A stretch of 64,000 nucleotides of DNA from Isurus oxyrinchus (taxonomy: Eukaryota): the NCBI GenBank assembly GCA_026770705.1, contig JANJGN010000047.1, positions 3,534,001 to 3,598,000 of the forward strand. The letters run 5' to 3'. This document shows positions 2,268 through 52,820 of the stretch, piece by piece. Position 1 is the first letter of the stretch; each line of letters starts with the position of its first letter. A model generated the notes under the pieces. It had not been told where the DNA came from. It searched no databases and was given only the letters and a program-made list of their open reading frames with translations. A program made the translations under genes and the position numbers.

Positions 2268-3200
2268 CTATTGTTGAGATTCGCTTTCATATTGCCGTTC
2301 AAATAATTTAGCAATTAGAATAAATGGATATTTAAGTCCATTCTTTAACTCCTCTGTAAATTTATTCAGGGTTATTGCATAAATGCAAGTGTTGGTGCAC
2401 GAGCTCAGAAGCCGTAGCAAGAACCCAAATTGTTGGATACAATAGGCTGGATTACTGAAATATTTGTTCGTAAAATTGTAGTTTACAACTTGCCAGTTTA
2501 ACGAATGTGCAACATATGTAATCCACAGCAGGATAAAATTGGCAGACAAAGCAATGAGTAAAATGATGGATTTCCTTCTGTTCTCCATTTCTGGGTCACT
2601 ATCATTCTCTGATCTGCCTTGGCGTCGGAGGCCCTTCCGGAGCCGATTGAGAATTAGAATATTCCTGACAGTCATAGAGTTGAACACCAAAATCAGGATA
2701 AATGGAAGCAACGGTGTTAATATGCTGTCAATCATCTCACACGCTATGCAAAAGGATGAGGTATAAAACTCTTGTGTTTCAATGCAAAAGCATGGTATAT
2801 TGTCGATAATTATGAAAGGAACAAAGGCGAAGTACCAGGGAATGGACCTCACACAGCTGACAAAGCTCACAGTCCCTATAACCACAGTTGCCGTTCTCTT
2901 GTTGCAATATTTTGGTTTTAGTTTCTGACAAGAAATGGCTACAAATCAATCAAAGCTAAAAGCGACTGTGAACCACACGGAACAGTGCAGGGCCGCAAGA
3001 GCCAAAACTATTTTCAGTTTACACACTTGGAGTGATGAGTAAAAAATTAATTGGGAAATAGATGTTATTAATCCGATTCAGTATAACATCAATGGTGACG
3101 AGTAGCAGATCTGGTTTGGTCATTGCCATTAGGTACAGAGTGATACATTTGGAAAGGCCGCAATTCCATCGTTTCAGGATCACAATCACCACAAAGTTCA
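2268..3200 (-). pseudogene. GPR139/GPR142-like orphan class-A GPCR copy A, exon 2 (disabled)
   Basis: Acceptor tttcctgcag|TG AAC at 3202/3200; motifs CGLSKC, MAMTKPDLL, CSVWFTVAFSFD*F, DPEMENRRKSIILL, SSCTNTCIY. A +1 frameshift near 3028 gives TAA 3019-3021; CGA>TGA at 2946-2948 falls in the DRF motif. Confidence 0.9.
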
Positions 3201-3795
3201 CTGCAGGAAATAGGATTAAATAACAACTTCTTAGTAGGCAAATTTCAGATAAAAATGGCATCAGTTTAAAAGGATATACTGTAAAAGTTACGATTATGCA
3301 TCAATTGCAACAAATCTATTGTCATTCCACAGAACAATACAATGCTGCTTTAGGGTGTCATTATACAACAGGTATAAAAATTCAATGAAAAAAATGGAAC
3401 AACATTTTGGTAAGTAACAAATGTTAATAAAGAATAGAGAAATTATAGAAAATAGGTAAAGAACAACAATGGTATATAATGAAATTGAAGATTTTGGTCC
3501 GTGCTGTTATAATTATATTTAGGAGCCAGAAGCACAACATTGTGCTTTCAAATCTCAAGTTGTAAAACTACGTTAAATGAAGCTGCTATTGTCTGGAGTG
3601 GCACTGGACATAATCTTGGAATCTGATACCGAGACATAAAAAAAAATCTGTTTCAGTGTGTCCTGAGGTCAAGGAACCAGTGTTCTTATGGACTGGCATC
3701 CTCGAACACAATATCAGGGTAAATTATGGATAATCAAAGTTCAATGGACCGCTATCAGAACTGGGGGAAAACAAAACATATATTAACTTAAGGAA

Positions 3796-4575
3796 TAGAG
3801 TCATAGAGGTCCACAGTACAGGAAAAGGCACTTTGACCCATCGAGCCTGCTCCGGTCAAATAAGTTCCTAACTATTCTAATCTGATTTTCCGCAACTTGG
3901 CCCATAGCCTTGTATGCCATGGCATCACAAGTGCACATCCAAATACTCCTTAAATGATAGGAGGGTTGCTGCCTCTATCACCCTTTCAGGCAGTGAGTTC
4001 CAGATTCACACCACCCTCTGGGTGAACAAATCATTTCTCACATGCCCCTCACCTTAAATTTATGCCCGCTGGTTATTGATCCCTCCAGCAAGGAGATACT
4101 CTTCTTCCTGCCTACACTATCTATCCCCTCATAATTTTTGAACCTAAAAAATGTACCACTTCTATCTCCTCTATTCCAGGGATAATAACCCCAGTCTTAG
4201 CAATCTCTCCTCATTACTAAAACTCTCCAGCATAGGAAAAATCTTGTTCAATCTCCCTGCACTCTGTCTAGTGAAATAACTTCCTTCCAATAATGTGGAT
4301 TCCAGAACTGCACGCAGCGCTGTAGCCATGGCTTAGCCAGCATTTCATACAGAGAAGGAGAAATCCATCTGGTCCATTGAGGCTGCTTCACCATGCAGTA
4401 TGACCATGGTTGATCTAATTATGGCTTTAACTCTGCTTTCCTCATTGACCCTCATAATACATGACCCCTTTTACAAGCGATAATGTGTGTAACCCAGCCT
4501 TGAATATATTCAATGACCGAGCATCCACTGCTGTCCAGGGAAAGATATTTCCAAGGACTAGCGACCCCCTGGCGG
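3796..4575 (-). mobile_element. Two CR1-type LINE 3' fragments in the copy A intron
   Basis: Microsatellite-like tail (atagagtcatagag) followed by CR1 3'UTR/ORF2 C-terminal sequence (taatgtggattccagaactgcac reads VQFWNPHY in reverse). Confidence 0.75.
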
Positions 4576-5559
4576 AATTTCGTCTTCCTCAAATTACAGT
4601 CCCAACCAGTTTAAGCAAATGCAGTTACACGAAAGGGAGTGCTGGCGAACAACAGGAGGAAGTCTAGGGTAGATTAGATGACGGAGACAATGATGTTGCA
4701 ATTGAAAATCAGAGCATGATGGTACAAGGAAAGAAATAAAAGGCCGGCCTACAGTTTGTGCAAATGCAAAAGACAGCAATACTAGCAAGTGATTCTTTAC
4801 CTTTATCACCATCCCTATCATCATTCCTCCACTCATTCCTTCCACTCTATCACAAATATTCCGCACTGTTCTCTCCTACCTCCCCAATTTTCCTTTCTCG
4901 TCCATTGCTCGTGGAATGCCAGGAGAAAATTGGAAGTAGGAAAGGAAACAGGGTTTGGAAAGGAGAGGTGTTAATGAGTAGCACTAGTGTTAGAGGCCAG
5001 GATGATGGTGCTTTATAACAGATACAGTAGCGTGGAGTTTATATTATGGGACTAGTCTATGCTCGAATGGTTGTTTCCCGACATGAATTTCATTTAAAAA
5101 TAACCAATTTTCTCAGTATCGAAGCTCATGTCATTAAATGGGGAGCATCAATGTGAATCGGAATGTGGCTGTGAGTCAGAAAAATGAAAATATTACTAAT
5201 TTGTATCAATCCACTCAAGGGGGTTACACACGTGTCTCGCTGGGTATTAAACCAATCCTCTTGTTGATATAAACTAATGAGCTGAATTTCGATATAAAGA
5301 TAATACTTTCAATATTTACATATGAGACAAGCCGTGGAATTATAGAAAATGGCGAAGAGAAGCTCTTCATGAGGACACAAACTGAGAAGTGAAAGGTGCA
5401 AAAATCTGACTGGTCAAAGTAAACTTGGATAAATGTGGTGCTTCAGCCTGGAAGAGAGAAACCTGACAGGCTGTACTAACTTCAAGGTGAAATGGAATAC
5501 CAGCTGATGAGAAAGCCGCTAACAAGGCATAATAATGATAAATAGAGACACAGAGAAGA

Positions 5560-6060
5560 AACACGTGTCAGCCACGGGAAACATTAATGAAGAACTTCAA
5601 CAGGACTGATGGACCTCAGTTACGCGGAGAGTATAGAGATGCAGGAATTATTCCTCTTTGAGCGGGAAAAGTAAAAAAAAATGACATGATCGATGTGTTC
5701 AAACATATTAAGTGCTTTGCTATTTAAGGTAGCTAGAAACGCCGTCCATTGGCATGAGTGTCAATAACCAGAAGACACATAATTATGATAATTGACAAAA
5801 TAAATAACCAGCGAGGACACGCAGACTTTTTCTTCCCATTTACACAACATGTTGATTTGGTCTGTAATACTTATTTAAATTAATGAAGAAAACAAATTAT
5901 TTCGTGACTTTCAGAAGCGAACTGGCTCCCTACTTAAAATCAAATAATTTTCAGGCTATTGGGAAAGAGCAGAATCGTGAGATTATTTAACAGCTTTAAC
6001 AAATATATTTGAAAGATGAAGAAAATGGCTTATTTCCATGCTGTATGATTTAATGAATTA
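5560..6060 (+). mobile_element. Degenerate CR1 LINE 3' end
   Basis: Typical CR1 ORF2 end (LSY.E...LFxLE.....GDxIxVFK) and 3'UTR. Confidence 0.6.
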
Positions 6061-6489
6061 AATGTCTTCGAGCAGTAAAATTGACCACCTAGACATTTGA
6101 ATATCATAAATACCTAATAGATTTGTTAATCCCCTTCAGGTAAGGAGATAAAACATTACTCTCTAAGGTACCATCTGAAGTTGTCCAGCCATCCATTCAG
6201 CTGTAACAACGGTTAACAAGCAGCAATGTGGAATCACATGAAACTCACGGACTGTAACATTTAAAGAGGGAGGGACAAAAGGTATAGGAAATAAATATCA
6301 GTTCTGCCAGTGACGCGCATATCGCAAAATCGAATAAAATCAAGACATCTTTTTTCAAATGACTAATTTGTTTCTCTTTCTTCAATTAAGATACAAATTA
6401 AACAAGTTGTGTTAAGCAAGAAGGAGTTTGGTTTAAATAACCACTCATCCTACTTACAATGTTAAGCATTCATTTACACCTGCATTTGA

Positions 6490-6940
6490 AAAGAAAGCGC
6501 AAGACACACTTATCTTACCGCTTTCACGACCACAAGACGGCACAAAGTTCCTCAGAGCTAATTAAATTCTTCTGAACTGCTGCCAGTGTCATATTTTAAG
6601 AAACGGCCAATTTGCGCTTAACAAACTCTCACAAATACCAACGTGAAACGCTTAGGTAATCTGCGGTCTGTAGCATTTATTGTGGGGTGAGTATTGGTCA
6701 GGTTATGTGGGATCATTCGCCCTGTTTATTGGGTATTGCTATGAAATTCTGAATCCCTAATTCAGAGAACAGAGGGAAATCTATTTAACGACTGATCCGA
6801 AAGGCAATGCAAAGCTCCCTCAATATCGGACTGAAATGTCGGCTGTTATTTTTGTACCCAAGTCCTGGGTTCCGCCTTGAGCACATAACCTTCTGACACA
6901 AAGGCGAGAAGAGTACCAATTTAGATACATTCGAACACTA
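6490..6940 (-). mobile_element. tRNA-derived DeuSINE (SacSINE1-like)
   Basis: tRNA-like head at the right end (reverse of ttgagcacataaccttctgacacaaaggcgag) and Deu-domain-like ggccaatttgcgc...ctcacaaatac. Confidence 0.65.
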
Positions 6941-8348
6941 TATTTGCAACATTGAAGAGTTTTTGTAATGAATTAAATTCGGATAATAATTGAAAAAGAC
7001 TACGACGCTGAGCATAGGAGTTAAGATGTGTTTTCAAGTGTCAGGTCCAGTATTGAAGTGGTGAGAAAACTTTCAAGCTGCATATTTCTCCAGATGCGAC
7101 TAAGGCGCTGAAGTAAGAAATACCTGTTGCAGCAATCATTCAGAATGGCTTTGTTCCATGGGCGAACTACTAATTTCACATGAGAGCTAAACGGTGGAGG
7201 GATGAAATAAGCGGGAGTTTTCTATCTCAGAAGTTAGCTACAATTCTAGAGCATTGGGTTATAAACAACTTATTGCGGATCTTACCTTAATTTGTGACCA
7301 TTAAAACACATGTTGCGTGATTATGTTCATTATCTTGCTCGGTGCTGAATTTTTTTTATCCTATTGCTCGTATAAAGAGTGCAAAATATGTAAAGTTGAT
7401 TAACTTTATTTAATGTATTTGCTATTGTTTCTCCTTGTCTCTATTTCAACAAGGAAAGTACAAATTTTAACGCTGCGTTAAACAGTGACAGGTAGAAAGC
7501 CATCTCGGACAATAGCGCAAAATGACTGAATCATGTCAGTCGCCCATTGCAAGCAATGCTGGGTATTTGGTAAGGTTGACAGTAATGGCCCTAAATATCA
7601 GCTGCTGAGTGTGATAGTCGGTTGATCCAACACCAACACCTGTGCATTACTATCTGAAATGAATTTCGATCTCTCAGAGTTTAAAACGACAGTACATCGT
7701 TACAGAAGATATGGAGTGTACAATTTCACCTGAAATATTGAACATCTCGTGAAGTATGAGTAGAATTAGAAAGGTTAACACGTGGTTCTCAGATTTAAGA
7801 TAATATTGAAATTTAATGACTATATTTTACATTGTAGAATGACTCCATATTGTATTGTGTTATTTTCCTTCTCATTGGCCAACGAAATCAATCAATCAAT
7901 CAATCAAATGAAAGGTGCCCAACACACCTGCCAGCAAACCAAATTAAATGTTTATTTATCGCAAACAAAAAATAAGTTAAAAAATACTAACATAGAAAGT
8001 TCATTGGCCTAGATTGAATAAACCACTTACAAGAATATGAGAATTAAAAACAGCTCTTAACCATGAACCTACATTAAAACTCTGATTGTAGTATTTGTAC
8101 TGTACAAAAGTCTATAAAGGCGAAGATTCCAGCAATATTAACTGCATCCAGCACTGAAAAAAGCAGAGTGTATCTAAGCAACCCTCCCACAGCAAAAGGA
8201 AAACTACTCTTGTTTGAACAAGTAATAATGACTTTGTAACTTCATAACACACAGAGCAATCTGAGTATGTTCCTGTACAAGGCAGTGAGCAAGAATAGTA
8301 ACAAATCAACATTGCTTAACACCATTAATTCAGGATCCAAAGGCTTAC

Positions 8349-8418
8349 CAGTAACGCCCATAGCTGTAAGAACAGGGTAGAATATGCTTTCTATTTGCAA
8401 GATTAATGGATATCCCAT
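8349..8418 (-). pseudogene. GPCR copy A, exon 1 (N-terminus and first half of TM1)
   Basis: ATG...MGYPLILQIESIFYPVLTAMGVT + G|GTAAG donor; 70 nt; phase-1 intron matches the exon 2 acceptor. Confidence 0.88.
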
Positions 8419-8485
8419 TATCTAAGACGTAAGTATACGTGTGAAGCCAACTACTTAAATATCATTGCGCCTTCGAAGAATTCGC

Positions 8486-9849: not shown

Positions 9850-10550
9850 CTGCCACGCCTGGTGGGTCTGGCTTGACTTAAATTTGGTCGTTAATTCGGG
9901 GGAGTTGCAAGTGCAGAGAACTGAAACATGCCTTCCGCCTAGTTCGCAATCAACGACTTTAGGCGTTTTGAGCAAGTTAGGACATCAGTAAATAACAGAA
10001 CAAATATCAGGCCAACTGCCGTTGTGATTTATGTAATTATCTCAGTAACAAACATACAGCAAAGCTGCTTCTGAGTGGGAAAAAGCTCATTGTTAGTTTC
10101 CCTCTATCTTCGTAACAAGATTGTTTGAGAGAATTTGGAACGACAGCAAGATGCATGAGGAAGCATTGGCTACTCAGCGACCTAGTTTATGTTTGAACTG
10201 CACGGGCAATGAGGAAGACTTTGCCAAGCTGGATATTTTGCTTCGTTCCTGGCGGGCTTCAAAGTATTTAACAGCACATTGGGAGTTCGTTGTGCAGCTT
10301 AAAAAAAACATCACGAAGCAGCAAATGTATTTTGGCCTAGCCGGCAGCTGACTGTTAAGAAATACGCTTATGGATAGACTTTGATGAAAGAGGTATCGGA
10401 AATAAAATGACTTCTGGCAGCTGCAGTCATAAACAGGGCCACAACAAAATTCAAGCAAAAACAACTCAGATTTAAACATTACAACATTGGCAAAATTTCG
10501 GTAATGGGAAATGTGCGCAGTAAAAATGTTCGCCCTCAATTATGGTAACT
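9850..10550 (-). repeat. Inverted copy of the tRNA-array spacer
   Basis: Reverse complement matches 51050-51570 (e.g. catacagcaaagct, tttggcctagccggcagctgactgttaagaaata). Confidence 0.7.
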
Positions 10551-22800: not shown

Positions 22801-23738
22801 TTAAATACAGTTAGAACAGGAAGACTTGGTTTCATTTTGCATTTTGTTTATCAGTATCAGAATTTTTGTCCAAGAAGATTTCAGTATCTTCTTCAGCTCT
22901 TCCCTGAACTTACTTTGTGTAGCTGCATAAATAAACGTGTTTGTGCAGGAACTCAAATACATGAGCTTTTGTCCAGTTTGAGTGGCGATGTATGCAGGAG
23001 CTGTATAATCCGGTCGTACATGAATGAACATACCACTGACTAACGAACAAACGACTGATGTCAGCCACAACAGTATATAAGTAAACGATACAGTGAACAG
23101 TAAGATAATCGATTTCCTTCGGTCCTGTATTTCTGGATCAGTCTGATTCTCACTGCTGTGACCCCGAATCTCCTTACGGGTTCGACTGGCTACTAAAATC
23201 CGTCTGACTGTCAAACAATTACACAGTAATATCAAAGTGAAAGGAATCTCATTCAGCAAAATACTTTGCAGGCAAGTAAATGTTACACCAAAAGGAGACC
23301 TATAAAAATCCAGGCTGGGTTGGAAACCCCAATGAGCATTGTTAATTATTTGCTTAGGTTCAAATGCAAACCAAAAAGGGATGTTCACTAAATATAAGAG
23401 GACAGAAATGGCTGTTAGAACTGCAGCCGCAGTTCTCACTGTGTAATACCTTGTTCTAAACTAGTGACTACAAATAGATACATGCCGGTCAAATGTGAAG
23501 CAGACTGTATATCACACCGTTAAATACAGGTTCACATTATTTGTGTATATTATGAACTTGCAAATAGATGTATAGGACAGGATAATATTTGGAAAACGCT
23601 TACGCAGGATTTTATAGACGAGAGCATTGTTGAGCATAACTAGCAAATCGGCTGTTGCCATGGACACCAGAAAGAAAGAAATACATTTTGAAAGGCCACA
23701 ATTTCCTCTGCAGAGAATCACGATTGTGATCAGGTTCG
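22801..23738 (-). pseudogene. GPR139/GPR142-like GPCR copy B, exon 2 (two nonsense codons)
   Basis: Acceptor ttttccccacag|CG AAC; NCGLSKC, MATADLL, V*YTVCFTFDRH, CSH*FRTRY, DPEIQDRRKSIILLF, SSCTNTFIY. TGA 23512-23514 and TAG 23461-23463; no frameshift. Confidence 0.9.
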
Positions 23739-23999
23739 CTGTGGGGAAAAGAAAGAGAAAGTAGGTAACATGGACACTCAGATACGTTCCACTGATAATT
23801 ATAGGAGATGTCACTGTGCATTTTTGCCTCGCATTATATACAGGCATTCGATTTACAACATTGGACAATGTTGATGAAATTCTTAAAATAAATAAAGGAA
23901 TATGCACTGTACTGTGATTATTTTGAAGGGCAGTATTTTTGATATTACCACGAGCTGAAGCAGAGACTGGAACCAGATTTCTGGGGTGGGGTGGGGGGA

Positions 24000-24800
24000 T
24001 CTCCACATTGGTCACGAGCCTTCTGAGAAATCAACCTGTGCATGTAATTGGTAAGAGAATGGAAACGGATTGGGAGCATAAACAGGTTGGAGCTAGGATT
24101 TCAGTCTGTGATCGGAACAAGCAGGTGTCTAAAAAATTCTTTTCTTTTTTCAGCAGAAGCGTCTCAGGCCCAGGGGCTCTTGCTGAAGCTGTGTGGGGGA
24201 GGAATCTTGAAAGAGTGAAACCTGAGAAACCTGTGGTCCACCCAGGCACGCTGAAGAGCTGGGAGATGTTCGTCTGTTATTTTAACCAGACCTGATCATA
24301 CTGTGTACCAGAGCGCTATTGAATGGTGAGTGACAGTGCCTCTGGTAAAACTCCACCATCAGGAGTGTTGTGACGTGAGTGAAAGAGGCTCCACAGAAGT
24401 AGGCCTTGTTGATGATAATCATATCTGTGGACCTGGGATGGTGTCAACTGGCTGTTGGAGGCCACTTGGGAAACAGACCCTGCGTGAAGAAGAGTAGCTG
24501 AGCACTGCTGAAGCAGGATGGATCTTTGAGAGACATTGGCACTGAATACAGGGCCAAATACGTGCTGAGTGCTAGCTGAGAAATCCTTGAGACTTACCAT
24601 TGTTGTATCAACTAAATAAACTATAATCAATACTTTCTACTGAATGCAATTAGCAGTTAATTATATATTTTTGCCTTTGATTTGATTTTTAAAGGAAAAG
24701 TTTTAAATAGTGAAATCTTCTCCATTGTTTCCTTCCATCAGTATCCTTTAGGAAGTTGGGCTATTTCAGGCAATTGATCCTCAAGTGGTCAGTAATACTA
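24000..24800 (+). mobile_element. Possible solo LTR in the copy B intron
   Basis: LTR-like composition, AATAAA ~24615 and a ...tcagtaata end resembling the other gypsy LTR ends here. Confidence 0.35.
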
Positions 24801-25953
24801 TGTATAGCGAGTGAAACTCTGCCTTATTCCCGGTAAATTGCAGTCTGCTGTTTTCATGGTGCTGAGAGAAGGGTCACTCGAATTCAATCTGGAGAATGGT
24901 ACCGGAGTGTTGCCCCAGGCTGCTCCAACTGCCACCTAGTCTGATTCATTGATGCTCAACTGGGGCTAATGTAGGCTTCTGATAATAGTATATAACTGGC
25001 AAAATCAGATCAACCGTCCATCATACATATCTCCCGATTCCCTTTAAAAGTCCATCGTCCCTGGCATTGGATTGCAGCTTAATTTACATTTAAACTGGAC
25101 AGTGCAAGTTCCCCGTGAGTACCTTAGAGACGCGGTCCCGTTACAGAAACAAAGTTTTGTAAAGGGAAAATGGGATATTTCTATAACCTGTATTTAAAAG
25201 GACAAATAATAAAGATGTTTCCTGGCATACAAACTTCCTGTCATCAGGCCGTTACCGTGTGATACACCATGTGAATTTGATAACTTGCCGCTGGGGATCC
25301 ACTCCAAGTTACATTAAATATAATTTTACTGCTGGCTCCTCCTGATAATTTGGAGATGGGAATCTCGGGAATGCTTCAGATGCCGGCGGTACTCAGGAAC
25401 ATTTCCAATCCCTTACAGGAAGCAAGAAATTCAAATAAAACTTTACGTTGGAAAAATATCTATGCAATTTAATTCAAAACATTGCGCTTTGCCTATTTAT
25501 AATCGCTCTGAAGGAGCCGCTCAGGAACTAAACAGGAACCGATGGAGTCACAAAGAGGGAGGAAGGAGGAGCAGCTTCCTGATCCTCAAAATATCTTCCC
25601 GTCCCCTGCTGGACAGAGGACGCTGCAGTGCTAGGAATTATCACTGTAAAGTAGACAATGGACAACATGAAATATGAGATTGTTACCATGGACACTAAGC
25701 AACACATTATATAATTATGTATGAACTGTTAACTGGCGGGATTTCAAACTCCCTCTCCTTCAATATGAGGAAGCTCCAGGTGCCCACAAACTATTGAGCA
25801 GAACTGCCGGGCCCTGTAAACAGCTGTAATTCCCATTTATATTCAGCAATTCATCCCGCTAGAAATATGACTGGGCAATGAGACATTCGCACAATCAGCC
25901 ACATAATCGCTAGCAGTGAAATACTCAACAGCTGCCAGGCAACAATGACTTAC

Positions 25954-26023
25954 CGGGAATACCAAAGGCTGCGAGAATTGGGTAGTAAATTTCCGTTACT
26001 TGTAGAATCGTTGACCGGATCAT
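25954..26023 (-). pseudogene. GPCR copy B, exon 1
   Basis: MIRSTILQVTEIYYPILAAFGIP + G|GTAAGT; 70 nt; phase 1. Confidence 0.9.
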
Positions 26024-34599: not shown

Positions 34600-35365
34600 G
34601 TGAAAGAATCATTTTGATTCTGTAAATATCAGACACTGGTAATATTTGTGAGCCTGGGATTCATTCTGTAACTGTCACTCTCTGGTACTGTTGTGAGAGT
34701 GGAATTGATTTGATTCAGTCACTACTACATCTTGTGAGTTTCGGATTTATTCTGTAAATATAAGCCTGTGGCACTATCCCTGGGTGTTGGATTGAGTCTG
34801 TAAATGTTACTATCTGCTGCTCCCTATGAGTGTGGAATTGATTCTACACATATCAGTCGCTGGTACTATTTTTCATGTAGGATTGAATCGTTGAATCTGT
34901 AAATATCAGTCTCTTGCACTCTCTGTGAGTGTGGGATTGATTTGGTAAACATCGGCCTCTGGTAGTATCTGTGAATGTGAGATTGACAATGTAAATATCA
35001 GTCTCTGGTACTGTCTGTGAGTGTATGATTGATTCTTTAAATATCAGTCTCTGGTATTGCCTGTGAATGTAGAATTAATTTTCTAAATATCAGTCACTTG
35101 TCCAGTTTGTGAGTGTCGTGTTTACTCTGTAAATATAAGTCTCTGGTATGAACTGTTTGTGTGGCACTGATTCTACAAATATCAGCCTCTTATACGACCT
35201 GTGAATGTGGGTTTGATTATGTAACTATCAGTCCCTGGAACTATCTGTGAGTGTGGGATTGATTCTGTAAATAAAATTCTCTGGTACTAGCTGTGAAGGT
35301 GCAATTGATTCTGTTTATGACAGTCTTTGGTATTATCTGAGAGTGTGGGACTTATTATGTTAATA
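34600..35365 (+). repeat. Degenerate 46-bp minisatellite (~16 copies)
   Basis: Consensus ctgtgagtgtgggattgattctgtaaatatcagtctctggtactat; ctgtga recurs at 34923, 34969, 35015, 35061. Confidence 0.9.
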
Positions 35366-35930: not shown

Positions 35931-35997
35931 ATGCATCAACCTATTCAATGGGCCTAGAACACATTCTATATGATCCTTGCCATAGTTGGTGTTTCTG
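35931..35997 (+). pseudogene. GPCR copy C, exon 1 with in-frame stop
   Basis: MHQPIQWA*NTFYMILAIVGVS + G|GTAAGT; TAG at 35955-35957; second in-frame ATG at 35970. Confidence 0.85.
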
Positions 35998-36839
35998 GTA
36001 AGTTTATAAAACCAAAGGTGTTGAGTGAATTTGGACGTGACCTGGTTTTTGCTATTGTTCTGCGAGTGGTCATGTTACGTTGGGTCGAATTGTTACAGTA
36101 ATACAGGCGCTCATTCTTTTCCTCATATTCACTCACCAGATGTGTGCTTCGTTGCCAATAACAACATTTAATGCCTATTCATAGTTGCCCTTCAGAAGCT
36201 GGTAGCGAACTGCCTTTCTGAAACTCTGCAGTCCGTGTGGTATAGGTACACACACGGTGCAATGAGAATTGAGTTCCTAATTAAATAATTGCAGTAATTA
36301 AATTTCCTGAACTACCTGTGCAGCTATGTTTTGTTTCATAATCTGTTTCTAGCTCACAGGCACTTTGTATGATAAAGTGATTGCATTCAACACAAGGTTG
36401 TGTCCTGTTGAATCAAACGTGAAAATGAGAAACTCCTGAGATGAACGTGTAACCGGAGGTATGTGTCAATATCATATTGTACTGTATGTACTGACTAACT
36501 GGAGCGGAACACGAGACTCCAGAAAGCGTGTATTGCTGGGACTATTTATTTCTTTAAAATTGAACTGCGTGGGTTATTAACTGAAGTGCAGCACACGAAG
36601 GCAGTGAGCATATATTGCCTGGAGTATCTGCCTTTTTAAAGTTGTGTTTCATGTGGGACACCAGCATGCATTACTCCGAGTAAAGGTAATGACAGCAATT
36701 CTGTTACTGATTAATCTTCTTCCAACACATGGTCCAGATAATCTATGGGTCACGAGTGCAGTTCTTTAATATATAATCTGTTTCAATATTATGGAAAATA
36801 ACCTGATATCTATGATTAGTTAATACTCTAGTTACACAT

Positions 36840-37310
36840 TTAGAAACACAGAAATTCATCCCAATTGGGTAACGTCAGTCTTCATGCTCAGCACAAGGCT
36901 CTTGAAATTCCATCTCATCTAACCTCCATCCCTGCCTCAAACATGTAAAACCTGGCTACTTCGCAAATAATTTTACATCAAGCACTCTATGTTGTAACAA
37001 ATTCACATGCTCAACATTTTCGGAGGAAAGCATTTTGTCTTGAATATTTTAGTGGATTTATATGGATTGTCTCACCTCTGAGTTTTGGTAATATTGTGCA
37101 ACTGCCCCAAAGAGTCGATCTTTCTTTTGTAATGTGAATACAAGAACCATACACAGTACGCTAAGTGTGTTTCACCAAGATTTTATAAAATATAGCATTG
37201 GCTCTCTTATTTTAGAGATATTCTAGTAGGGATGAACACCTGTGCATTGAACCCATTTCCATCATCTCATTAAACTTCTTTCTCAATTTAAACCTTTCAT
37301 GCATCAATGG
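36840..37310 (-). mobile_element. Degenerate CR1 3' fragment in the copy C intron
   Basis: tagaaacacagaaatt tail and reversed CR1 motifs (agaaccatacacagtac). Confidence 0.55.
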
Positions 37311-37517
37311 TCTCGGTACCACAGTCGCAGGGAGTGGCCCAAGGTGAATGCGGTTCTCTGCTCTGAGGGAGTGCTAAGAGTCTGGGAAGAAGCCTGGAAA
37401 TGTACTGGTTGGAGATGAGTAGAGGTCATGATTGAGGTTGGCCAATCTCTGATGCGATCCCAACCCACAAGCTTTTGATGCTAAATTCAATTCTTCATCC
37501 TTAGAAAAAGAGGATAT

Positions 37518-38456
37518 ATGTCAGCCAATTACGGTGTATCTTCCCTCCTTTCTCTTACTGTTAACTTGGTGGTAATCGTGATCCTGTCCCGTGGAAGTTG
37601 TGGCCTCTCCACCAGCACCACTTGCTACTTGATGGCAATGGCATCGGCGGATCTCCTGGTCCTTATTAATGAGGACATACTCAACCAAATCAGTGATTAT
37701 GTTTTCTCATTAAATTTCATGGACATCACCCCTCTGTGTAGTGTTCGTTATGTCCTTCTCCGTGCAGCTACAGACTGTTCTGTCTGGTTCACCGTTGCCT
37801 TCACTTTTGAGCGATTTGTCACCATTTGCTGCTCGAAGTTGAAATCTAAATATTGCAGCAAGAAAACTGCGTCTATTGTCCCAGCCACAACCGGCATTTT
37901 ACTCTGTTTAAAAAACATTCCCATCTACTTTAGATTTAAACCGAGGAGGATTGTCCACAATGTACCATGGTTGTGCTCTAATAAGCCAAGTTATTTTACT
38001 GACACTCCATGGATTGGATTCAGAAAGTTTGAAAAGATTTTAAACTCATTGATACCATTTGGTGTAATTCTGTTGCTCAACGCTCTGACGGTCAGACACG
38101 TTTTAGTGTCCAGTCGAGTCCGTAAAGGCCTGAGGGGTCAGAGTAAGGGAGAGAATCACAGTGATCCGGAGATGGAGAGCAGAAGGAGGTCTGTGATATT
38201 ACTCTTCACTATATCGGGCAGCTTCATACTCCTGTGGTTGGTGCATATTTTATATTTCTTTCATGCTGCAATTGTCTTAGATAATTATTCGTTTTCTATC
38301 TTTGAAAACATTGCCTATATTCTACGGAATTTAAGTTGCTGCACAAACACATTTATTTATGTGGCGACTCAGTCCAAGTTCAGAGAGCAGTTGAAGGGTG
38401 CTGTGAAATATCCGGTTATATCAATAATTAAATTAATTAATAAGCGCAAAACCTGA
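37518..38456 (+). CDS. GPR139/GPR142-like orphan class-A GPCR copy C; intact exon-2 frame (exon proper 37561-38456), functionality doubtful
   Basis: 312-aa ORF with seven-TM pattern: CGLS, MASADLL, CSVWFTVAFTFERF, NALTVRH, DPEMESRRRSVILLF, SCCTNTFIY; expected acceptor AG at 37559-37560 reads TG. Confidence 0.8.
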   Translation: MSANYGVSSLLSLTVNLVVIVILSRGSCGLSTSTTCYLMAMASADLLVLINEDILNQISDYVFSLNFMDITPLCSVRYVLLRAATDCSVWFTVAFTFERFVTICCSKLKSKYCSKKTASIVPATTGILLCLKNIPIYFRFKPRRIVHNVPWLCSNKPSYFTDTPWIGFRKFEKILNSLIPFGVILLLNALTVRHVLVSSRVRKGLRGQSKGENHSDPEMESRRRSVILLFTISGSFILLWLVHILYFFHAAIVLDNYSFSIFENIAYILRNLSCCTNTFIYVATQSKFREQLKGAVKYPVISIIKLINKRKT

Positions 38457-39189
38457 GAGCAGCTTTAAGATGCAGGGTTATGGGGCAAGAGGCGACCGCC
38501 AGTGGACCGAAAGGAAAGAGCCTGGAGGATTAACAGACATCAGAGAGCTGTTAATGACGGCCAAAGGGGGCTAGAGAGAAGGAGGATGAGAAGAAAGTTA
38601 GCAGCAGGTACCGGTTACGTCGAACAGCAATGAGCCAGGATAAAGGGCAGATATTCAGATCACCAGAATAAATGAACAGCAGCAAACAGACATAATAAGG
38701 AGCAGCAGGACAAACGCACGTGAAATTTTCGGAGAAGCTGCAGTGACTCTGCAGACGGAGTCAAACATGCCAGTGGTCAGCGGGACAATGGCGATAGGTG
38801 GCATGTGGTGTCCAGGAGTAAATTAACAGCAGGGGTCAGGCAGGGAAGAGAGCAGTGAACAAAGGGCAAAAGCGGACATTCAGAGGAGCGCACTTTGAGG
38901 AGCCAGGGGGGACAGTCAGAACGTTTCCCCAAGGACAGGAAGTAGAACAGCAGACACTGTGTCTTCTAAACCTCCTCTGCTACGATCCCCAACTCCTTAC
39001 AATTTCTGAAAGAGAAAACAAAACGATTTCTTGCAAAAGAAAAATGCTGAACATTTCTGAAATCTGCTTTGGCCAATGTATTGTTTATTTAATTATCTAT
39101 CCACCTATCTGTCTATCTTTCCATCTATCTATCTATCTGCCCATCTGTCCCTCTGTCCTTCCTCCTGTCCGCCCGCCACCTGGAACTAG

Positions 39190-42399: not shown

Positions 42400-42772
42400 A
42401 CGTTTTATACTAATGGAGGTTGTGGGCAAAGCTGAGATAGTTAATTAACATTTTGCATATTTTTTTGACCAAGAATGAAAATCCTCCCCAAGCCATGTTG
42501 AAAGAGAATCAAATTCAGTGACTAGAAAGGGATGAATTTGATAAAAAGGAGTTGTTGAAGACGCTGTCTGCATTTAAAGTTGACGAAGCTTCGTGACAGG
42601 ATGATTTCCATCCAAGGCGACTGAGGGAATCGAGAGATTTATTGCAGACGACATAATTTTTCAGTCTTCCCTAAATTCAGGGGTGGTGCCCAGCGACTGG
42701 AAAATTGAAAATATTACACCCTTGCTCAAAAAAGCTTGCAAGGATAAGCCCAGCAACTACCGATCTATCAGC
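42400..42772 (+). mobile_element. CR1 ORF2 internal fragment
   Basis: VPSDWKIENITPLLKK..KDKPSNYRSIS. Confidence 0.85.
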
Positions 42773-42774
42773 TC

Positions 42775-44110
42775 GCATAGAAGCAGTTTTTTTTTACGCC
42801 ACTTACCCACCTTCACCCGAAAGTGCGGTCCATTTTTCATTTTCTTGAAACAATCCAATTCTGCTGGATGTCCCAGCCTTCCCCCGAGCGATGCTGGTCA
42901 CAGTATGCAGTCAAATGGGAATGCGACGATAACAATAAAAGTCAACTTCCTTTCATCACAACTTTTTACCACGCAATTTGGTAGAGCTTGGATTCCATGG
43001 CCCCTAACGTACGAGTTCCAGAGCAGTGTACACGGGTAAACCACAAAGATGAGCTGGGAACCCGCACCACACCACCCGCCCACGCCCCAACCCGCCCCCC
43101 CACGTCCCCCCCAAACCCCCACCTCCAAACCCTGCCTCCCACCCGCCCAGATGTTCCCAGGTCAGTTTGCACAAAAATTGCCTTGGAAGTTCAAATTTAA
43201 TTTGGGCAATTTCCCTGCACTGGGAAACATCCGAAACTGCAATGTAAATTGGAGAATTCTGTTGTTTCTAACCGTCTTACGTCAATAGTTAAAAAAAAAT
43301 TCTAACTTCTGGGTTACTATTGCAAAGACTAGCACGGAACCTGATGGGACCCGCACCACCGAAACCCAATTCCTGACCGCACCGTCCCACCACCCCACCC
43401 CCCACCCCCCGCACAACCACCACCCACACACACACACCCGAGACCCCCTGGGGACTCCTCCCTGCCCAATCTACCCCACACTCACCGGACACCACCCACG
43501 CCTCTGAGGCTGCACCAAACACTGACCCTAACCGGCCTCCTGGAACTGGCGAACCCTCCAACTCGACTAACCGAAGCGCCGACAACCCGACGCTACAAGA
43601 ATCCCCCACTCCGACTGGCCGACCCAGCCCAACTAGGCCACCCTCTCCGCAGAGTGTACGACGGCCTGCCTACTGCCCTAGTCTACCCCTCCCTCTTCAC
43701 CACTGAGTGCTGGAACTCCCGATGACCCGACCCTTCATCTGGACTGCTTAATCATTTCCCCCGACGGCCTGTGCAGCCACTACCCCAACTGCTTCCCCCC
43801 TCCAGGTTTCCCGCCTTTCCTTCTGCCCCGGCTGACAGAACCCCCCCCACCCCCCCAGTACCCCGCCCCCACCCCGATGAGCAAATTCTAAACACTTACC
43901 AGACAAACCTCCCAACCCTCGGCTTTAAAGTGGCTGGACCTTTAAACTTTTACGGCTGCCAGTGCCATTAAAGCGGACACGTGGTCTGTTTGCATCCGCC
44001 CCTGCCCTGGTGTACGGCAGGAACAGGGAGTCTGCTCGAATGTCACGGAAGGAAAAGAGCAGTGGAACTTCAAACCGACTCTGGTTGTCACTCCGCGGAA
44101 ACTCAGTCCC
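42775..44110. mobile_element. C-rich non-autonomous DNA-transposon-like repeat(s)
   Basis: C-rich low-complexity core; terminus ggaaactcagtccc resembles Harbinger-like TIR ends; partner TIR not found. Confidence 0.35.
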
Positions 44111-45149: not shown

Positions 45150-48100
45150 GTATTTGCTACTTTTATCGCTTCCAGATTAAGCTTTTTTGTGCTTTATAGT
45201 TTGTATATTCTATAGTAATGAGGATTAGGAAAGAAGGGCCCTAGTTTAATTGATTAAAACGTTTAATTTAAAAAGATAAGTCATGGCAGGAGAGCTCAAA
45301 TCCGTGGTGTGCTCCACGTGCTCCATGTGGGAAGCTGGGAACAATTCTAGTGCCTGGGTCCAGCATGTATGCCGGATGTGTGCCCAACTGCAGTTCCTGA
45401 AAGCTGGGGATTTGGAGCTAGAACGGCGGCTGGGAGCACCGTGGAACATCTGCGAGTCTTAGAGCATCGTGGGTAGCACATTTAGAGAGGTGGTCAAACC
45501 GCAACTGAAGGGACTTGAGGAAGGAAGGGAATTGCTGACCACGAGAAAGTCCAAGATAAACAGGCAGGCAGTTCAGGAGTCCCCTGTCATTCCGCTTGCA
45601 ATCAATATTCCATTTTGGAGGCTGATGAGGGCACTGCTTCCTCCAGGGATTGCAGACAGAGCCAGCTTCTGGCACCACAAGCAGCCTGACTACAGCAGGG
45701 GAGGAAGAGACGAAGAGCAATAGTAATAGTTGCTTCTAAAGTCAGAAGAACAGATAGGCGCTACTGTGGCCATCAACGAGGCTCATGGATGGTGTATTGC
45801 CTCCCTGGTGCTAGGGTCCTGGATGTCACTGAACGGCTGAAGGGCATTCTGAAGGGGGAGGGTGATAAGGCAGAGGTCATGGTGCATGTTGGCACCAATG
45901 ACATAGGTAGAAAGAGGGATGAGGTCTTGCATCAACAATTCAGGGTGTTAGGCAGTAGACTAAAAAGCAGTACCTCCTGGGTTGTAACCTCTGGATTAAT
46001 CCCAGTGCCAGTGCTAGCGATCACAGAGATAGGTGGATAGTGAAGAAGAGTACATGGCTTAAGAATTGATGCAGGAAGGAGGATTTTAGATTCCTGGATC
46101 ACTGGGACTGCTTCTGGGGAAGGTGGGACCTGTACAAGCGGGATGGTTTACATCCGAACGTGTGCGGAGCTAAAATCCTTTTGGGAGAGATTGCTGGTGC
46201 TTGTGAGAGGATTTGAAATATTTCGGTAAGGCGAATGGTCACAGAATATTAGCAGGATCGGAACACATCATAAATTAGTATAAGAATAAATTTAAGGTAA
46301 AACGGATGTACTAAAGGTGAAGATTGACACCTGGAATTATGATATAGTTGCCTTCAGAGACAGGAGGTTAAGGGAAGGTTAGGATTGATCGCTCAAAATT
46401 TCAGGATATAGAATCTTCAGGCGAGACAAGGGAGGTGGAAAAGACAAAGATGCATAGCAGTATTAGTTAAGGATTCCGTTACTGCAGTACGGAGAGATGA
46501 CATTTTGTAGGGGGCATCGAAAGTAGATTTGTCAGTAGAGCTTAGGAGTAAAAACGGGGCAGCCACATTGTTAACTGTTTATTATAGACCCCCAGATAGT
46601 CAGCGGGAAATTGACAAGCAAATATGTGCACAATTCGCGAAGATGTATAAAAATAATAACAATAGAGTAATTATATTAGTTGATTTCAAGTTTCCCAAAA
46701 AATAATTGGAATACATATATTGTTCAGCTCTTGGCTGGTGTGGATTTCTTGAAATGTGTACAGGGCAACCTTTTCGCTCAATATGTGGAGGATCCAACAA
46801 GGGAAGGCACATTGCTGGACCGACCTCTGGGGAATGAAGCCCGACAGATGGCTGAGGTGGTGATGGAGGATTATTTTAGTGATAGCGACCACAACATGAC
46901 AACACTTAAGCTTGTTGTGGACCAAGAAATAGACCAATTGCAAAAAAATATTTTGGATTAGGGGAGAGTGGATTTTCGTAAAATAAGGCAGGATCTGGCC
47001 AAGGTGGATTGTTGACAGATTCTTTTGGGGAAATCTACAGAGGAGCAGTGGGGGCGTGCAAAAAGGAAATGCAGCGGGTACAGGCTCAACATGTTCCCTC
47101 TCGGGTGATAGGAAGAAGTAACAAGCGCAGAGAACCATGTGTGCACAGAGATATTCAGGATATGATGAGATGGAAAATATCGGCTTTTTGTAGATACAAG
47201 GGGAGCAACTGAGTGGAGGCATTAGTAGAGTACAGAAATTGCAGAGTGGAGCTTAAGAAAGCAATTAGGAGAGCATGGAGGGAATATGAGAAAACTCTGG
47301 CTGGTGAAAGTAGGGAAAACTGCATGTTATTGTATAGGTATATAAATTGGAAGAGGATAAGCAGGGAAAGAGTAGGGCCCATTAGGGACCAAGGGGCAAT
47401 CTATGGGGGGAGCCACATGGTATCGGTAGAGACTTGAACGAACGTTGGCAGGCTTAAAAGTGGACGAATCTCCCTTCGGTTACCTTCTCTCTCTCCTCCG
47501 TTGCTAAACTTTCCCTCTGGAGTTCAAGTTATTGCATTTCCATTTCTGTTTGAAATACTCTTTGATTTTTGCTTTTGCCTCCAAATAAAGTACGTTGGTG
47601 AAAAAGACATATGAGGCACTTCCCTTTATCGATCGAGTCATAGATTACAAAAGTTCAGAGCTCATTTTGGAGTTTTATAGAACCTTGGTGAACCCACAGT
47701 TGGAGTGCAGTCCTGGCCGCCACATTATAGGAAGAATGTGATTGCGCTGAAGGTAGTGAATAAGAGATTAACAGGATGATGCCTGGGATGAAACAGTTAA
47801 GTTATGTGGAGAAGTTGGATATACTTGAGTTGTTTTCGTTGGAGCGCAGAAGACTGAGGGGTGAATGGGTCGAGGTGTACAAGATTATGAGGGGCATGGA
47901 CAGGGTGGATAGGGAGCAGCAGTTCCCCTTAGTGAAGGGTCGGTCACGAGGAGATACAAGTTGAAGGTGAGGGGCAGGATTTATCGGGGGAATGTGAGGA
48001 AAACCCTTTTACCCAGACGATAATGACAGTCTGGAATGCACTCCCGGGGAGGGTGGAGGAAGCGGGTTGCCTCAAATCCTTTAAAAATTACCTGGATGAG

Positions 48101-48360: not shown

Positions 48361-49572
48361 TCCTCCTCACGACAAAACACCGCCATTTTGTTACGTTGCC
48401 TGAAAGCTTCATGATGATTCCTATATGTATGTCCAAATAGTTAATAATTACCACGAAAAAAGGAGAAACCCGATTGGTACACATTAATCTCCCAAATACC
48501 GTTCATGCTAATGTTTTCAGGATTCCTGTCGGTGCTCGGGCACTTTTTTTAACACTAAGTTCTCTATTCCCTCTGTCATGCAGCCCGATAACAGATGAGA
48601 AATTCCCCATGTGTTTACAGCAAAAGAGTGCAATGCAATTGGAAACTTTGCATTATAACTACACGTTGTTGATTAGTGACACACAATCTCATTGGCTCGG
48701 ATACCGTTGCCTCCCCCTTCAAATTCCAACCAATCTCGGAGACTTAATACGAACACATCAAGCAGAGGGTAAACACAAGGCAACATAAGAGTGAGCTCTC
48801 CCCACAACGTTGCCCTGCGGCCTGTGAAGTGGCGCTGTTGTATGACTGTTACTCAGATAAATACATCACTGACAGGCTGTTAACTTGTCATTTACCGCTT
48901 TCCTAAACTGCGCTAAACGCCTAGCGTAATTGTTTGAGGGCCAGACGGAAATATATTTCAGTGCCTGCCTTGCAGCTCCCCCGAAATATAGTGCCAAATT
49001 TAAATATCAACAGGCAGTCGGAAATTTCTCGTTGAAGCCCCCATTATGCGTTTGCACGACTTTGAGCTCCTGCCTTCTAATTCGCCATGAAATCCACACG
49101 CTTCACCTGCAACATCCTTGAGATACGGCCACATTTCGACATTATTTTTACTTCAATGTTTGAAGTGCTTTAACTTTTTTGAATTTAGCATCGTTCCGAA
49201 GGCAATTGTGAATGACCAACTTACACTGCTCATGCCCGACATTCCCACATCCCGAGTGGAAGGAATAGAAAAGAAGAGATCCTTGAGATATCAGCCTAAT
49301 GATCACAGGAACTTGTGTAGCTTGAGGTTTGCTTTCCGCAGAATGTTTTCAACATTAAGATGAAGGAGAGCGTATCTGTTGCTGAACAGCATTGTGAAGA
49401 TCGGATCATTCAGCAGCCCCTGGGAAAACATACCCTTACAGCTCACTGGTAACCTGAAGCTTAGACTCAAGAAATAGGAGAATTCCAGCCTATGCGCGAG
49501 CAGCTAGCAAGCAAAAATGCTGAATTCTCCATTCACTGCCTGTTGAATTTGAAAAGCTCGTGACAAGACCCA

Positions 49573-49633
49573 GGGAGTTTACTTCAGGTGGTTAGAGCGT
49601 GCTGCTGATAACGCCAACGTCACGGTTTTGCTC
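49573..49633 (+). pseudogene. 3'-truncated tRNA-Ile pseudogene (anticodon reads GAT)
   Basis: tcaggtggttagagcgtgctgctgataacgccaacgtcacggtt aligns to tRNA-Ile; 3' end lost at the duplication junction. Confidence 0.8.
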
Positions 49634-50303
49634 TGAACGCCTAAAGTTGTTGATGAGAGCGAGGCGGAAATATATTTCAGTTCCCTGCACTGAAACTCTC
49701 CCGAATGATAGCCCCACAGTTATATTTCAACAGGTATTCAGTAATTTCTTGTTGAAGCCCCCGTCGTGAGTTTGAGTGACTGTGAAAACCTTCTTTCTAA
49801 TTCGCCATGAAATCCACACGCTTGAATTGCAACATCCTTGAGATACAGCAACATTTCGACACTGTTTTAACTTCAATGTTTGAAGTGGTTATACTGCTTA
49901 AATTTAGCATCCTTCTGAAGGCAATTGTGAATGAGCAACTTACACTGCACATGCGCGACGTGCCCACATCCCGTGAAAGGAGTAGAAAAAAGAGATGCCC
50001 GAAATATGAGCCTATTGATGACAGAATTTGTGCAATTTGAGCTTTGTCTTCTACAGAATATTTTCCACATATGGCAGAAGGAGAACCTATCCGTTGCCGA
50101 AAAGCTTTGTGAATGTCAAGTCATTCAGCAGCTCTAGGACAATCATATCCTTATAGCTCGCTGTTGACTTGAAGTTTTGACTTGGCAAATACGTGATTCC
50201 CAACCTGTGCGGGATCAGTCAGCAAGGGAGAATGCTGAATTCTCCACTCACTGCTAGACTGAATATGAAAAGCATTTGATCCAAATGGCGACCAGTTAGC
50301 TCC

Positions 50304-50462
50304 TCGATAAAAGCAAAATACGGAGGATAATGGAACTCTGAAACAAAAACAGAAAATGCTGGAAAAACGTCTTCAGAGTCATACGGACTCGTAAAGTTAA
50401 CTCTGTCTTTCTGTCTTCAGATGCTGTCAGACCTGCTGAGTTTTTCTAGCTATTTCTGCTTT
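50304..50462. mobile_element. Penelope-like terminal fragment with inverted arms and 15-bp TSD
   Basis: aaacaaaaacagaaaatgctggaaaaac followed by the reverse-oriented terminus; TSD cgaccagttagctcc 50289-50303 / cgacaagttagctcc 50463-50477. Confidence 0.75.
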
Positions 50463-50463
50463 C

Positions 50464-50536
50464 GACAAGTTAGCTCCGTTGCTTAGAGGATGATGCTAAT
50501 GACAGTGAAGTCGCGGGTTTATTCTCGCATTAACCA
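50464..50536 (+). pseudogene. tRNA-Ile(AAT) pseudogene
   Basis: gacaagttagctccgttgcttagaggatgatgctaatgacagtgaagtcgcgggttt...taacca; AAT at 50498-50500; B box and stems damaged. Confidence 0.75.
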
Positions 50537-52359
50537 AACGGACAAGGAATATTCTGGTCCTTCAGTTCAGTTGCAGTCTTCTACTATTACGTTTTTAGAG
50601 TGGTAGTTTCTTTACTGTCACGTCTGAAGGGGATTTCGAGTATGACCGTGTTGCCTTGCGACATCGCAGGTTGCATCTTTTTTCATTCATACTTCTTGCC
50701 TCTGCAAAATTTCTGCCTCTTATTCTGACAAACCTGTCCTTCTTTTAACGCTTCTGTGCAACATATCTGTCGGTATCATGACAACGAACCTTTCACCCTA
50801 GACAGCGAAACGCTTGCAGACCAGCAGTGACATCGCTGTCAACTGTGGCCGTGCCTGTCGTTCGCTGCAATGCCGCAGGCAAATTCATTCGAACCAACTG
50901 TTAAGTGTCAATGCAACCAATTATACTAACCTACCTTAAAGTGATTTCATTCCAGCTATTAACATACCTCCACACGAAATAAATAACTTGTGTCCCAACA
51001 ATTTCACGCAAAGACTGTATCTGTCAGCAAAGCCTATCCATTATCATATTTCTTAACAGTCAGTCAGATGCGGGCGAGGCCAAAAATACATTTGCTGCTT
51101 CGGGATGTATTTTTTTTAAAGCAGCACAGTATACTCCTAATGTATTGTTAATTATTTACAGGCACGCCCGGAACGAAATAAAATTTCCAACCGCGCAACG
51201 TGTACTTCATAGCTGAGCTACTTGTACGCGACGCATAAACTTGGTCACTGAGAAGCCAATGTCTTCCCGCCAAACTTGTCGTAATTCCAATCTCTCTCTC
51301 TGAAATTCTAGTCATGAAGACACTCAGCAGAGGGTGAACTCAAGGCAAAAATAACAGTGAGCGCTCCCCACTGTGAAGTAGCTTTGCTGTATGTCTGTTA
51401 CTGGGATAGATTTGTAAATCACCAAGGGCATTTGGCCTGATATTTGTGCTGTCATTTACCATTTCCGCAACTTGATCTAATCGCCTAAAGTCATTGATTG
51501 ACAGCCAGGTGGAAATATGTTTCAGTTTCTGGCACCTGCAACTCCCCCGAATGGACCGACCGAATTTAAAATTCAACAGGTACTCGGTCATTTATCGCTG
51601 AAGAGCCAGTCATAAGTTTGTAAAGCTGTGATCGTCTTACTTATCATTTGCAATTCTGTTCAATTACAAGCTTCACTTGCATCAACGTAAGGGGAGGGAA
51701 ACACTTCAAGACTAATTTTGCTTCATTGTTTGAAGTCCTTTCAATTTGTACATTTCGCAATCCATCTCAGCACAATTTCGGATGACCAGCTTATACTGGT
51801 CGTGGAGGCATATCCATATCTCATGAAATAAATAGAAAAAGGGAGATTGGATAAGATATCAGCCTGTTGATGGCGAGAAGTTTTTCCGCTTGAGGTTTGC
51901 TTTCGGCAGAATATTTTCAACATTCAGAAGGGGAGCGTTCAAGTTGCTGAGCAGCTTTGTGAAGATCGGAAAAATGAGGCAGCTCTGGGGAAAACTCATT
52001 CCCTTCCAGCTCGCTGGCAACCTGAAGCTTTGAATTTACAAATACGGTTGTTCCAACGTTCCAGCTGGTGCGTGGTCAGTCAGCAAGGACTAAGTGTCGA
52101 TGCTCCTTGGGTCGTTCATCAGTAACATTTCAGAAACAGGATCTGAGTGACCCTCCGCCTTCTGCCCTGATACTGTCTCATAGAAGTGTACTGGAAGGAT
52201 ATTGTGTATATGTTGTTTTAGTGTTTTGCAAAAGTGTCTGCCTGTATGGTAAGAAAATCAAGCTGCATAATTCTCAGTCGAACACATCTGAACAATCCCA
52301 CTGCATACTGTGATATTTATCTGGCTGTCGCTATCACTGATCTCGTTTCCCTCTTATGG

Positions 52360-52820
52360 CGAACGTATTTTCAATCAAGATTCTCGCCAGAATAAACTCT
52401 GGCCTTCCCACATGTATCTCTGTTTATAGGGTGTATGGAAACAGCAGATCTACTGGCAATATTTTTTATAGAGTGGAATATCAAATTTTCAGCAAAGACT
52501 TTCCACAATCATTCCTCTCCAACACTCATCGTTATGGTACTACCAAACTTAAAATTCAACAAGCACCTATCATAAATTGACACTGCTGTAACCGCTTACT
52601 TTTCATTCACAATTAATTTCCAATCCCAATCTTCAATTGTTACTGTCACTGACAACGACATTTTGCCAGAATTTCAAAGCAAAGTATGTTACTGTGAAAA
52701 CTGCTATAGTGAACATAACAGCGGTCTCTGTGCTGATCTATTGGGGGAAAATGACATTTTGGTTAGCTTAGGAACAGAACTGTTCGTGTGTCAGCTACTA
52801 AACAAACTGAATTAACGGGT
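52360..52820 (+). pseudogene. GPCR copy D: heavily decayed 5' part of exon 2
   Basis: ANVFSIKILARINSGLPTCISVY / METADLL / YQIFSKDFPQSFLSNT ... FCQNFKAKYVTVKTAIVNITAVSVLIYWGKMTFWLA*E parallels copy B TM1-TM4; frameshifts; acceptor lost. Confidence 0.8.

Follow-up and report, generated by a model that had tools for sequence, protein, structure and literature searches.

Among receptors with solved structures, the closest to those treated here is GPR139. GPR139 is a two-exon gene that is 70% conserved between human and zebrafish (PMC7318219), has a tryptophan/phenylalanine (Trp/Phe) site formed by F3x33, H5x43, W6x48, and N7x38 (PMC5430874), and is related to the SPR and FMRFamide receptors of a neural branch of neuropeptide receptors (PMC12208981). 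Rinne 2019 named GPR210A and GPR210B in coelacanth, gar, and fishes beside GPR139 and GPR142, and that paper makes no mention of sharks (PMC6504862). Orphan receptors are already known to form large repertoires (PMC3261222, PMC2700072, PMC3963977). Cartilaginous fishes have been described as having a “relative paucity” of GPCRs (G protein-coupled receptors) and few olfactory receptors (Tan 2021, PMC8455134). Here, we analyzed a window of Isurus oxyrinchus DNA (the whole stretch of 64,000 nucleotides [nt] at positions 3,534,001 to 3,598,000 of contig JANJGN010000047.1, assembly GCA_026770705.1) that carries four copies, A to D, of a receptor gene, and we followed their relatives through protein, structure, and read databases.

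The four copies belong to a large receptor family of cartilaginous fishes, which we judge from its sequences, at a probability of roughly 0.5, to be a repertoire of chemical sensors in which each intact member would detect its own outside ligand and signal through a common G protein. At E values of ≤1e-3, relatives numbered 1706 clusters for copy C, 1030 for copy A, and 1146 for copy B; the best 120 per search were listed, which yielded 357 distinct relatives, and counts drawn from them are lower bounds. Cartilaginous fish accounted for 353 of the 357, the remaining 4 carrying no species name. A full core was present in 345, and 336 were left after merging at 95% identity within species, with at least 57 distinct members in Heptranchias, at least 47 in Pristiophorus, and at least 116 in the horn shark Heterodontus. 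The first-pass annotation of this DNA had proposed a large expanded receptor family and a protein search of other chondrichthyans; the search agrees with that proposal and returned far more than a handful of copies, and no outcome that had been named as refuting it turned up in the tests that could be run. In run X21 (1904 million letters of raw sequence from this species; matches counted from 85% identity), depth reached 69 to 108 on conserved exon-2 bins versus 1.4 to 1.8 around exon 1. For an assumed genome of 3 to 6 Gb, this suggests about 110 to 340 family copies in this species, a rough figure that counts partial matches.

Trees point to turnover within the family. In a tree of 382 sequences, from which five gap-rich outgroup rows had been dropped, copies A, B, and C fell in three separate subfamilies, with A and B each sister to a white-shark protein. 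Same-species pairs made up 79 of the 107 cherries, whereas permutations averaged 18 and never exceeded 34 (sampling was biased to top matches), and single-species clades contained up to 18 members. In a maximum likelihood (ML) tree of 38 sequences, which includes two of those five rows (lamprey P0517 and amphioxus P0478), a chimaera protein was sister to the A-type clade (97.5/98). Because this chimaera sequence is nested inside the family, diversification would have begun before the split of chimaeras and elasmobranchs. Subfamilies are common to sharks, rays, and one chimaera, and by these trees the expansion is chondrichthyan-wide and old, with later species-specific bursts. The birth-and-death mode suggested earlier for these genes thus finds support in the bursts, in the damage to 4 of 4 copies in the window, and in the intact white-shark sister of copy A.

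By Pfam, conserved motifs, and predicted fold, the family is one of class A (rhodopsin-like) GPCRs. The open reading frame (ORF) of copy C scored 60.1 bits against PF00001 (cut-off, 30.5), with relatives at 51 to 70 bits, and an AlphaFold2 model of an intact relative has seven long helices and helix 8 at a predicted local distance difference test (pLDDT) score of 88.8. All Foldseek matches among the rows listed were class A, with GPR139 at rank 3 and no discrimination within the class. Among 106 sequences thinned to <75% identity, N1.50, D2.50, D3.49, R3.50, P5.50, W6.48, N7.49, and Y7.53 are each present in 98 to 106, C3.25 is kept in 102, and the cysteine of extracellular loop 2 (ECL2) is kept in 98, while P6.50 and P7.50 are mostly threonine. 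Variation is concentrated on the outer side: mean entropy in this set fell from 2.40 bits at 32 presumed pocket positions to 1.95 over the 55 remaining outer-half ones (p=0.003) and 1.02 over 97 inner-half ones (p=1.5e-10), with 2.15 in outer and 1.26 in inner loops and values of up to 3.6 at positions 3.32 and 3.33. Across eight pocket sites picked for their variability, 116 horn-shark proteins displayed 112 different signatures. Across 339 proteins, 66 columns are ≥90% conserved and median pairwise identity is near 52%. Most N termini are very short, with N1.50 falling at residue 25 in the median, and glycosylation is rare (3 of 173 proteins).

From these features, we would reconstruct the following history and mechanism. 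A single chordate orphan in low copy number, belonging to the GPR139/SPR/FMRFamide-receptor branch but distinct from GPR139 itself, would have begun tandem duplication before the chimaera/elasmobranch split, and its duplicates would have diverged in the pocket and then been retained or lost. Intact genes would each encode a class A receptor with a short tail, its pocket differing from gene to gene and its G-protein face common to the family. The receptors are predicted to respond to water-borne or luminal compounds, either peptides or derivatives of amino acids, and predicted sites of expression are chemosensory cells of the olfactory rosette and taste buds and solitary chemosensory cells. Coupling may be of Gq or Gi type, by analogy to GPR139, which couples to Gq (PMC6367278). 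In a catshark atlas, the 50 top-ranked genes of the brain and olfactory library include no GPCR, which is uninformative for this family (PMC11979771).

The family resembles the odorant (OR), trace amine (TAAR), vomeronasal (V1R and V2R), and taste (T2R) receptors in its tandem clusters, pseudogenes, species-specific bursts, variable pocket, and conserved inner face. It differs from them in ancestry, in having a coding intron in transmembrane helix 1 (TM1), and in its Pfam profile: the shark proteins matched PF00001 only, with no match to an olfactory, vomeronasal, or taste model, and no OR, TAAR, V1R, T2R, or V2R was among the 60 best solved-structure matches of the family profile. Its origin differs from those of the recognized vertebrate chemoreceptor families. 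Nematode Srw receptors, the Aplysia candidate chemoreceptors (AcCR), and flatworm PROF1 offer a parallel in kind, as large, lineage-specific, clustered families of rhodopsin-type orphans with truncated copies; clustering and truncated copies are reported for Aplysia (PMC2700072). PROF1 and most AcCR genes are single-exon and expanded independently, whereas the shark genes have two exons. The Srw model, PF10324, marks 16 to 74% of members in atlas clusters; its cut-off was passed by 2 of 6 low-copy vertebrate kin tested and not by shark proteins P0006, P0121, and P0238.

Mammalian MRGPRs and formyl-peptide receptors (FPRs) are likewise clustered, fast-turnover class A receptors with broad ligand ranges. 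A somewhat unlikely alternative is an innate-immune or barrier repertoire of this sort, in which leukocytes, skin, gill, or gut would sense peptides of microbial or damage origin; its clustering, turnover, and pocket variability would look the same. A C-type contig that lies ~60-fold above the adjacent intron in bulk run X5 (RNA by guess) would suit an abundant cell type, and the solved structures that rank next behind GPR139 for the family profile are chemokine receptors (58 versus 84 bits), but these scores are only at the generic class A level. The short, rarely glycosylated N termini are unlike those of chemokine receptors, and the solved-structure search revealed no special sequence affinity to MRGPRs or FPRs, which makes the comparison one of analogy only. 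The lack of MAS1-family receptors in cartilaginous fishes, which Tan 2021 (PMC8455134) discusses, leaves such a role open, but ancestry in a neural neuropeptide-receptor branch (PMC12208981) speaks against it.

The relation to GPR139 is distant. Human GPR139 came first among solved structures for the family profile, and copy C, searched by itself, matched it at an E value of 1.4e-8 (37.5 bits). Against 1.84 billion representatives, the profile found 142 matches at E≤1e-30, and 30 of the 150 listed matches were named, chosen mostly for divergence. Non-chondrichthyans among the named matches were a salamander (230 bits), coelacanth (219), silverside (200), amphioxus (153 and 143), catfish (143), anchovy (143), crocodile (124), jack (122), caecilian (122), and lamprey (119), all of which outscore human GPR139. 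When the Trp/Phe positions were mapped through the profile-GPR139 structure alignment, F3.33 was found in 22 of the shark proteins, H5.42 in 75, N7.39 in 14, and all four residues in 1 of 339, with W6.48 kept in 334 of 339. GPR139 has Asp at 3.25, read from the alignment, where the shark family keeps C3.25 along with the ECL2 cysteine; P6.50 is mostly lost in the sharks; and GPR139 and GPR142, which sense aromatic amino acids, are each one conserved gene compared with >100 shark copies. In exon number, the shark family and GPR139 agree at two. By scores and residues, the shark copies are not orthologues of GPR139 or GPR142, and of the earlier label “GPR139-like” only a distant kinship stands. 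It is quite improbable that these genes are internal sensors of nutrients or neuropeptides whose copies multiplied to adjust dosage or fine-tune a response, as GPR142 would serve in gut and pancreas and GPR139 in brain: the top solved-structure match, the two exons of GPR139, and the retained W6.48 are in keeping with such a role, but the Trp/Phe site is lost, and a receptor with an endogenous ligand usually stays conserved and in low copy number, as the salamander kin do.

The nearest kin outside the chondrichthyans are other low-copy vertebrate orphans, probably those named GPR210 to judge from matching taxa and tree position, with accessions unmatched. The source taxa of the nearest non-chondrichthyan matches (salamander, coelacanth, teleosts, and lamprey) supply the sister groups in the tree. 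In the 38-sequence tree, chondrichthyan proteins group together with a salamander gene as their sister (94/77), followed by a coelacanth-teleost clade (99.9/100). Unlike the shark family, GPR210A/B and these orphans appear low-copy, and the low-copy kin are ~29% identical to copy C. The salamander orphan (P0446, P0503, and P0506), the nearest of them, is 88 to 94% identical across three genera and keeps an aromatic residue at 3.33, W6.48, and N7.39, which is closer to the GPR139 pocket. Alternative gene models of the kin (P0504, P0505, and P0507) are split at the same point in TM1.

Several points weigh against the chemosensory reading. Its genomic signature also fits immune or itch receptors such as MRGPRs and FPRs, and an outer-variable, inner-conserved pattern is a general class A trait. 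The pocket positions were assigned by generic numbering rather than from model coordinates. As gene models, the database proteins have a canonical start and length in only 173 of 357 cases. All four window copies are damaged, and the sole transcript-like signal, in a run that is RNA by guess, is an unspliced C-type contig that lacks exon 1. Support for chondrichthyan monophyly is moderate (Shimodaira-Hasegawa-like approximate likelihood-ratio test [SH-aLRT], 89; ultrafast bootstrap [UFBoot], 83; 0.66 in the 382-sequence tree), and GPR139 and GPR142 are absent from both trees, their separateness being read from scores and residues.

The proteins are already in public annotations, mostly as “probable GPR139,” and the family as such is apparently undescribed: no account of a chondrichthyan GPR139-like expansion was found in the literature, in shark and ray genome papers, or in a transcriptome paper, a search that did not cover subscription journals. 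We tentatively suggest a separate chondrichthyan family of chemoreceptors, numbering from one hundred to several hundred genes, derived from an orphan of the GPR139 branch and hidden under that label. If so, it would add another independent origin to those of vertebrate chemoreceptors, would be larger than the known odorant receptor set of these fishes, and would overturn the view of sharks as GPCR-poor. Were the family sensory, what sharks smell or taste with would become directly testable; were it immune, it would be a shark counterpart of the MRGPR/FPR systems. Irrespective of tissue, a large receptor repertoire has gone unstudied in the lineage that is sister to the remaining jawed vertebrates, and its ancestral ligand could be approached through the conserved low-copy kin of salamanders, coelacanth, and fishes.

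Within the window, tblastn with three long ORFs found four related loci, two on each strand (Table 1). An nhmmer profile of exon 2, built from copies A, B, and C, gave exactly four matches (E values of 1e-259, 3e-253, 1e-251, and 8e-54), of which only that to copy D is independent, and no fifth paralog was found with it up to an E value of 1. The analysis confirms the first-pass annotation in its four diverged paralogs in both orientations and in the shared architecture of copies A to C, in which a short first exon of 67 to 70 nt ends inside TM1 at a phase-1 intron and is followed by a second exon of ~0.9 kb. It is corrected in one respect, the end of the cluster, which had been placed at 52820 and lies ~430 nt further along by the nhmmer match to copy D. 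Exon-1 models matched only A, B, and C in the window and detected no exon 1 for copy D. Two extra exon-1 pieces, at ~30290 and ~45800, were rejected as repeat-derived frames that lack a donor and were unmatched by the exon-1 models. Copies A to C are 41 to 47% identical in pairwise protein comparisons, and TATAAA occurs 75, 75, and 93 nt upstream of the start codons of A, B, and C, respectively (chance, ~0.015 per 30-nt interval).

Table 1. Receptor copies and other elements in the 64,000-nt window
Feature	Position	Strand	Description
Copy A exon 1	8349..8418	-	70 nt, open, phase-1 GTAAG donor
Copy A intron	3201..8348	-	5148 nt, GT..AG
Copy A exon 2	2268..3200	-	Frameshift and stop; pseudogene
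Copy B exon 1	25954..26023	-	70 nt, open, phase-1 GTAAG donor
Copy B intron	23739..25953	-	2215 nt, GT..AG
Copy B exon 2	22801..23738	-	Two premature stops; pseudogene
Copy C exon 1	35931..35997	+	67 nt, phase-1 GTAAG donor, in-frame TAG
Copy C intron	35998..37560	+	1563 nt, TG acceptor; high-copy repeat at ~36140-36260
Copy C exon 2	37561..38456	+	Fully open; AATAAA at 38667
Copy D	52360..53247 (3' end approximate)	+	Decayed B-type exon 2; nhmmer E 8e-54, 2e-45 with copy B alone
~720-nt unit	48761-52088		Three decayed copies, 68-78% identical, just upstream of copy D
Pieces related to ~720-nt unit	9878-10391 (inverted), 472-898		Flank copy A
46-nt tandem array	34614-35365		~570 nt upstream of copy C start
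33-nt tandem array	57157-57872		~22 copies
AT-rich satellite	62236-64000		61-nt unit, ~29.5 copies
Retroelement-like fragments	30127-31613, 42605-43036, 45762-45980, 53263-53831		Decayed; by translations read by eye and internal match; those tested without Pfam match
Overlapping open frames	13242-13717	+ and -	154 amino acids (aa) on +, 134 aa on -; no Pfam match

As had been noted from the letters alone, each copy is damaged in its own way. Copy A, 89% identical to the intact white-shark (Carcharodon) model P0121, is disrupted by a frameshift of 1 nt near 3027 and by a TGA at 2948-2946 that replaces the arginine of the DRF motif (R3.50). Copy B, 72% identical to white-shark P0238, has a TGA at 23514 and a TAG at 23463, and copy D has many stops and indels throughout. 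The white-shark identities of A and B point to a probable lamniform source for the window. Copy C carries its in-frame TAG at 35955-35957 in exon 1 and has TG in place of the AG acceptor at 37559-37560. In organism B, one contig has G at 35956, which abolishes the exon-1 stop; run X1 of organism A, possibly not independent of the window, has no alternative letter there. An in-frame intronic ATG at 37518, ahead of exon 2, would encode 312 aa with a hydrophobic first helix. A functional copy C by this route is possible on paper and unsupported: nine ATGs lie upstream of it, and many database models also read into the corresponding intron tract, which weakens such a rescue.

The copy C unit looks to be present in about 8 to 36 near-copies for the assumed genome of 3 to 6 Gb, a rough count that includes partial matches; raw depth in run X21 is 5 to 11 over the copy C intron and 3' flank. 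In organism A, the unit (35998-38700) looks amplified ~10- to 30-fold despite its two lesions, with a contig depth of 350 to 370 compared with 27 to 35 for paralog contigs; in organism B, its depth is about 20 to 30 and no amplification was seen. That the family is mostly a neutral amplification of a duplication-prone unit in slow-evolving, repeat-rich shark genomes, with few functional members, is highly improbable, for while the four damaged copies, the apparent amplification of copy C despite its lesions, and the ~half of database models without a canonical start would fit, the strongly conserved columns, the concentration of variation in the predicted pocket and outer loops, and the subfamilies common to sharks, rays, and chimaera would not.

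No run recorded as RNA contained the stretch. In run X5, RNA by guess, a contig over 37209-38700 has a depth of 285 versus 3 to 8 in the upstream intron and 0 in exon 1. It differs from the window at 17 positions and runs unspliced through the TG acceptor, and raw DNA reads have no depth step at its start. The contig fits transcription of a damaged C-type copy starting within the intron and bears on that copy, not on expression of intact members. Its 30 extra 5' letters were not found in the window; they are possibly an alternative first exon or an insertion in a paralog.

Among the raw reads of this species, 95 diverge at 37763 into another subfamily, with a HAVLLY motif in TM3, which may be the largest subfamily in this species. 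Several of its members (P0390, P0438, P0469, P0479, and others) have a longer, tandemly repeated N terminus with N-glycosylation sites. Two database models, catshark P0438 (fused to integrin alpha-X) and smooth-hound P0421 (fused to a sodium channel), are probably annotation merges that reveal neighboring genes.

Rfam gave 0 matches in the window, and the ~720-nt repeat had no credible Pfam or atlas match. Copies of this repeat near copy D and related pieces on either side of copy A may be part of a duplicated unit. At the far end of the window, the AT-rich satellite continues past the last position.

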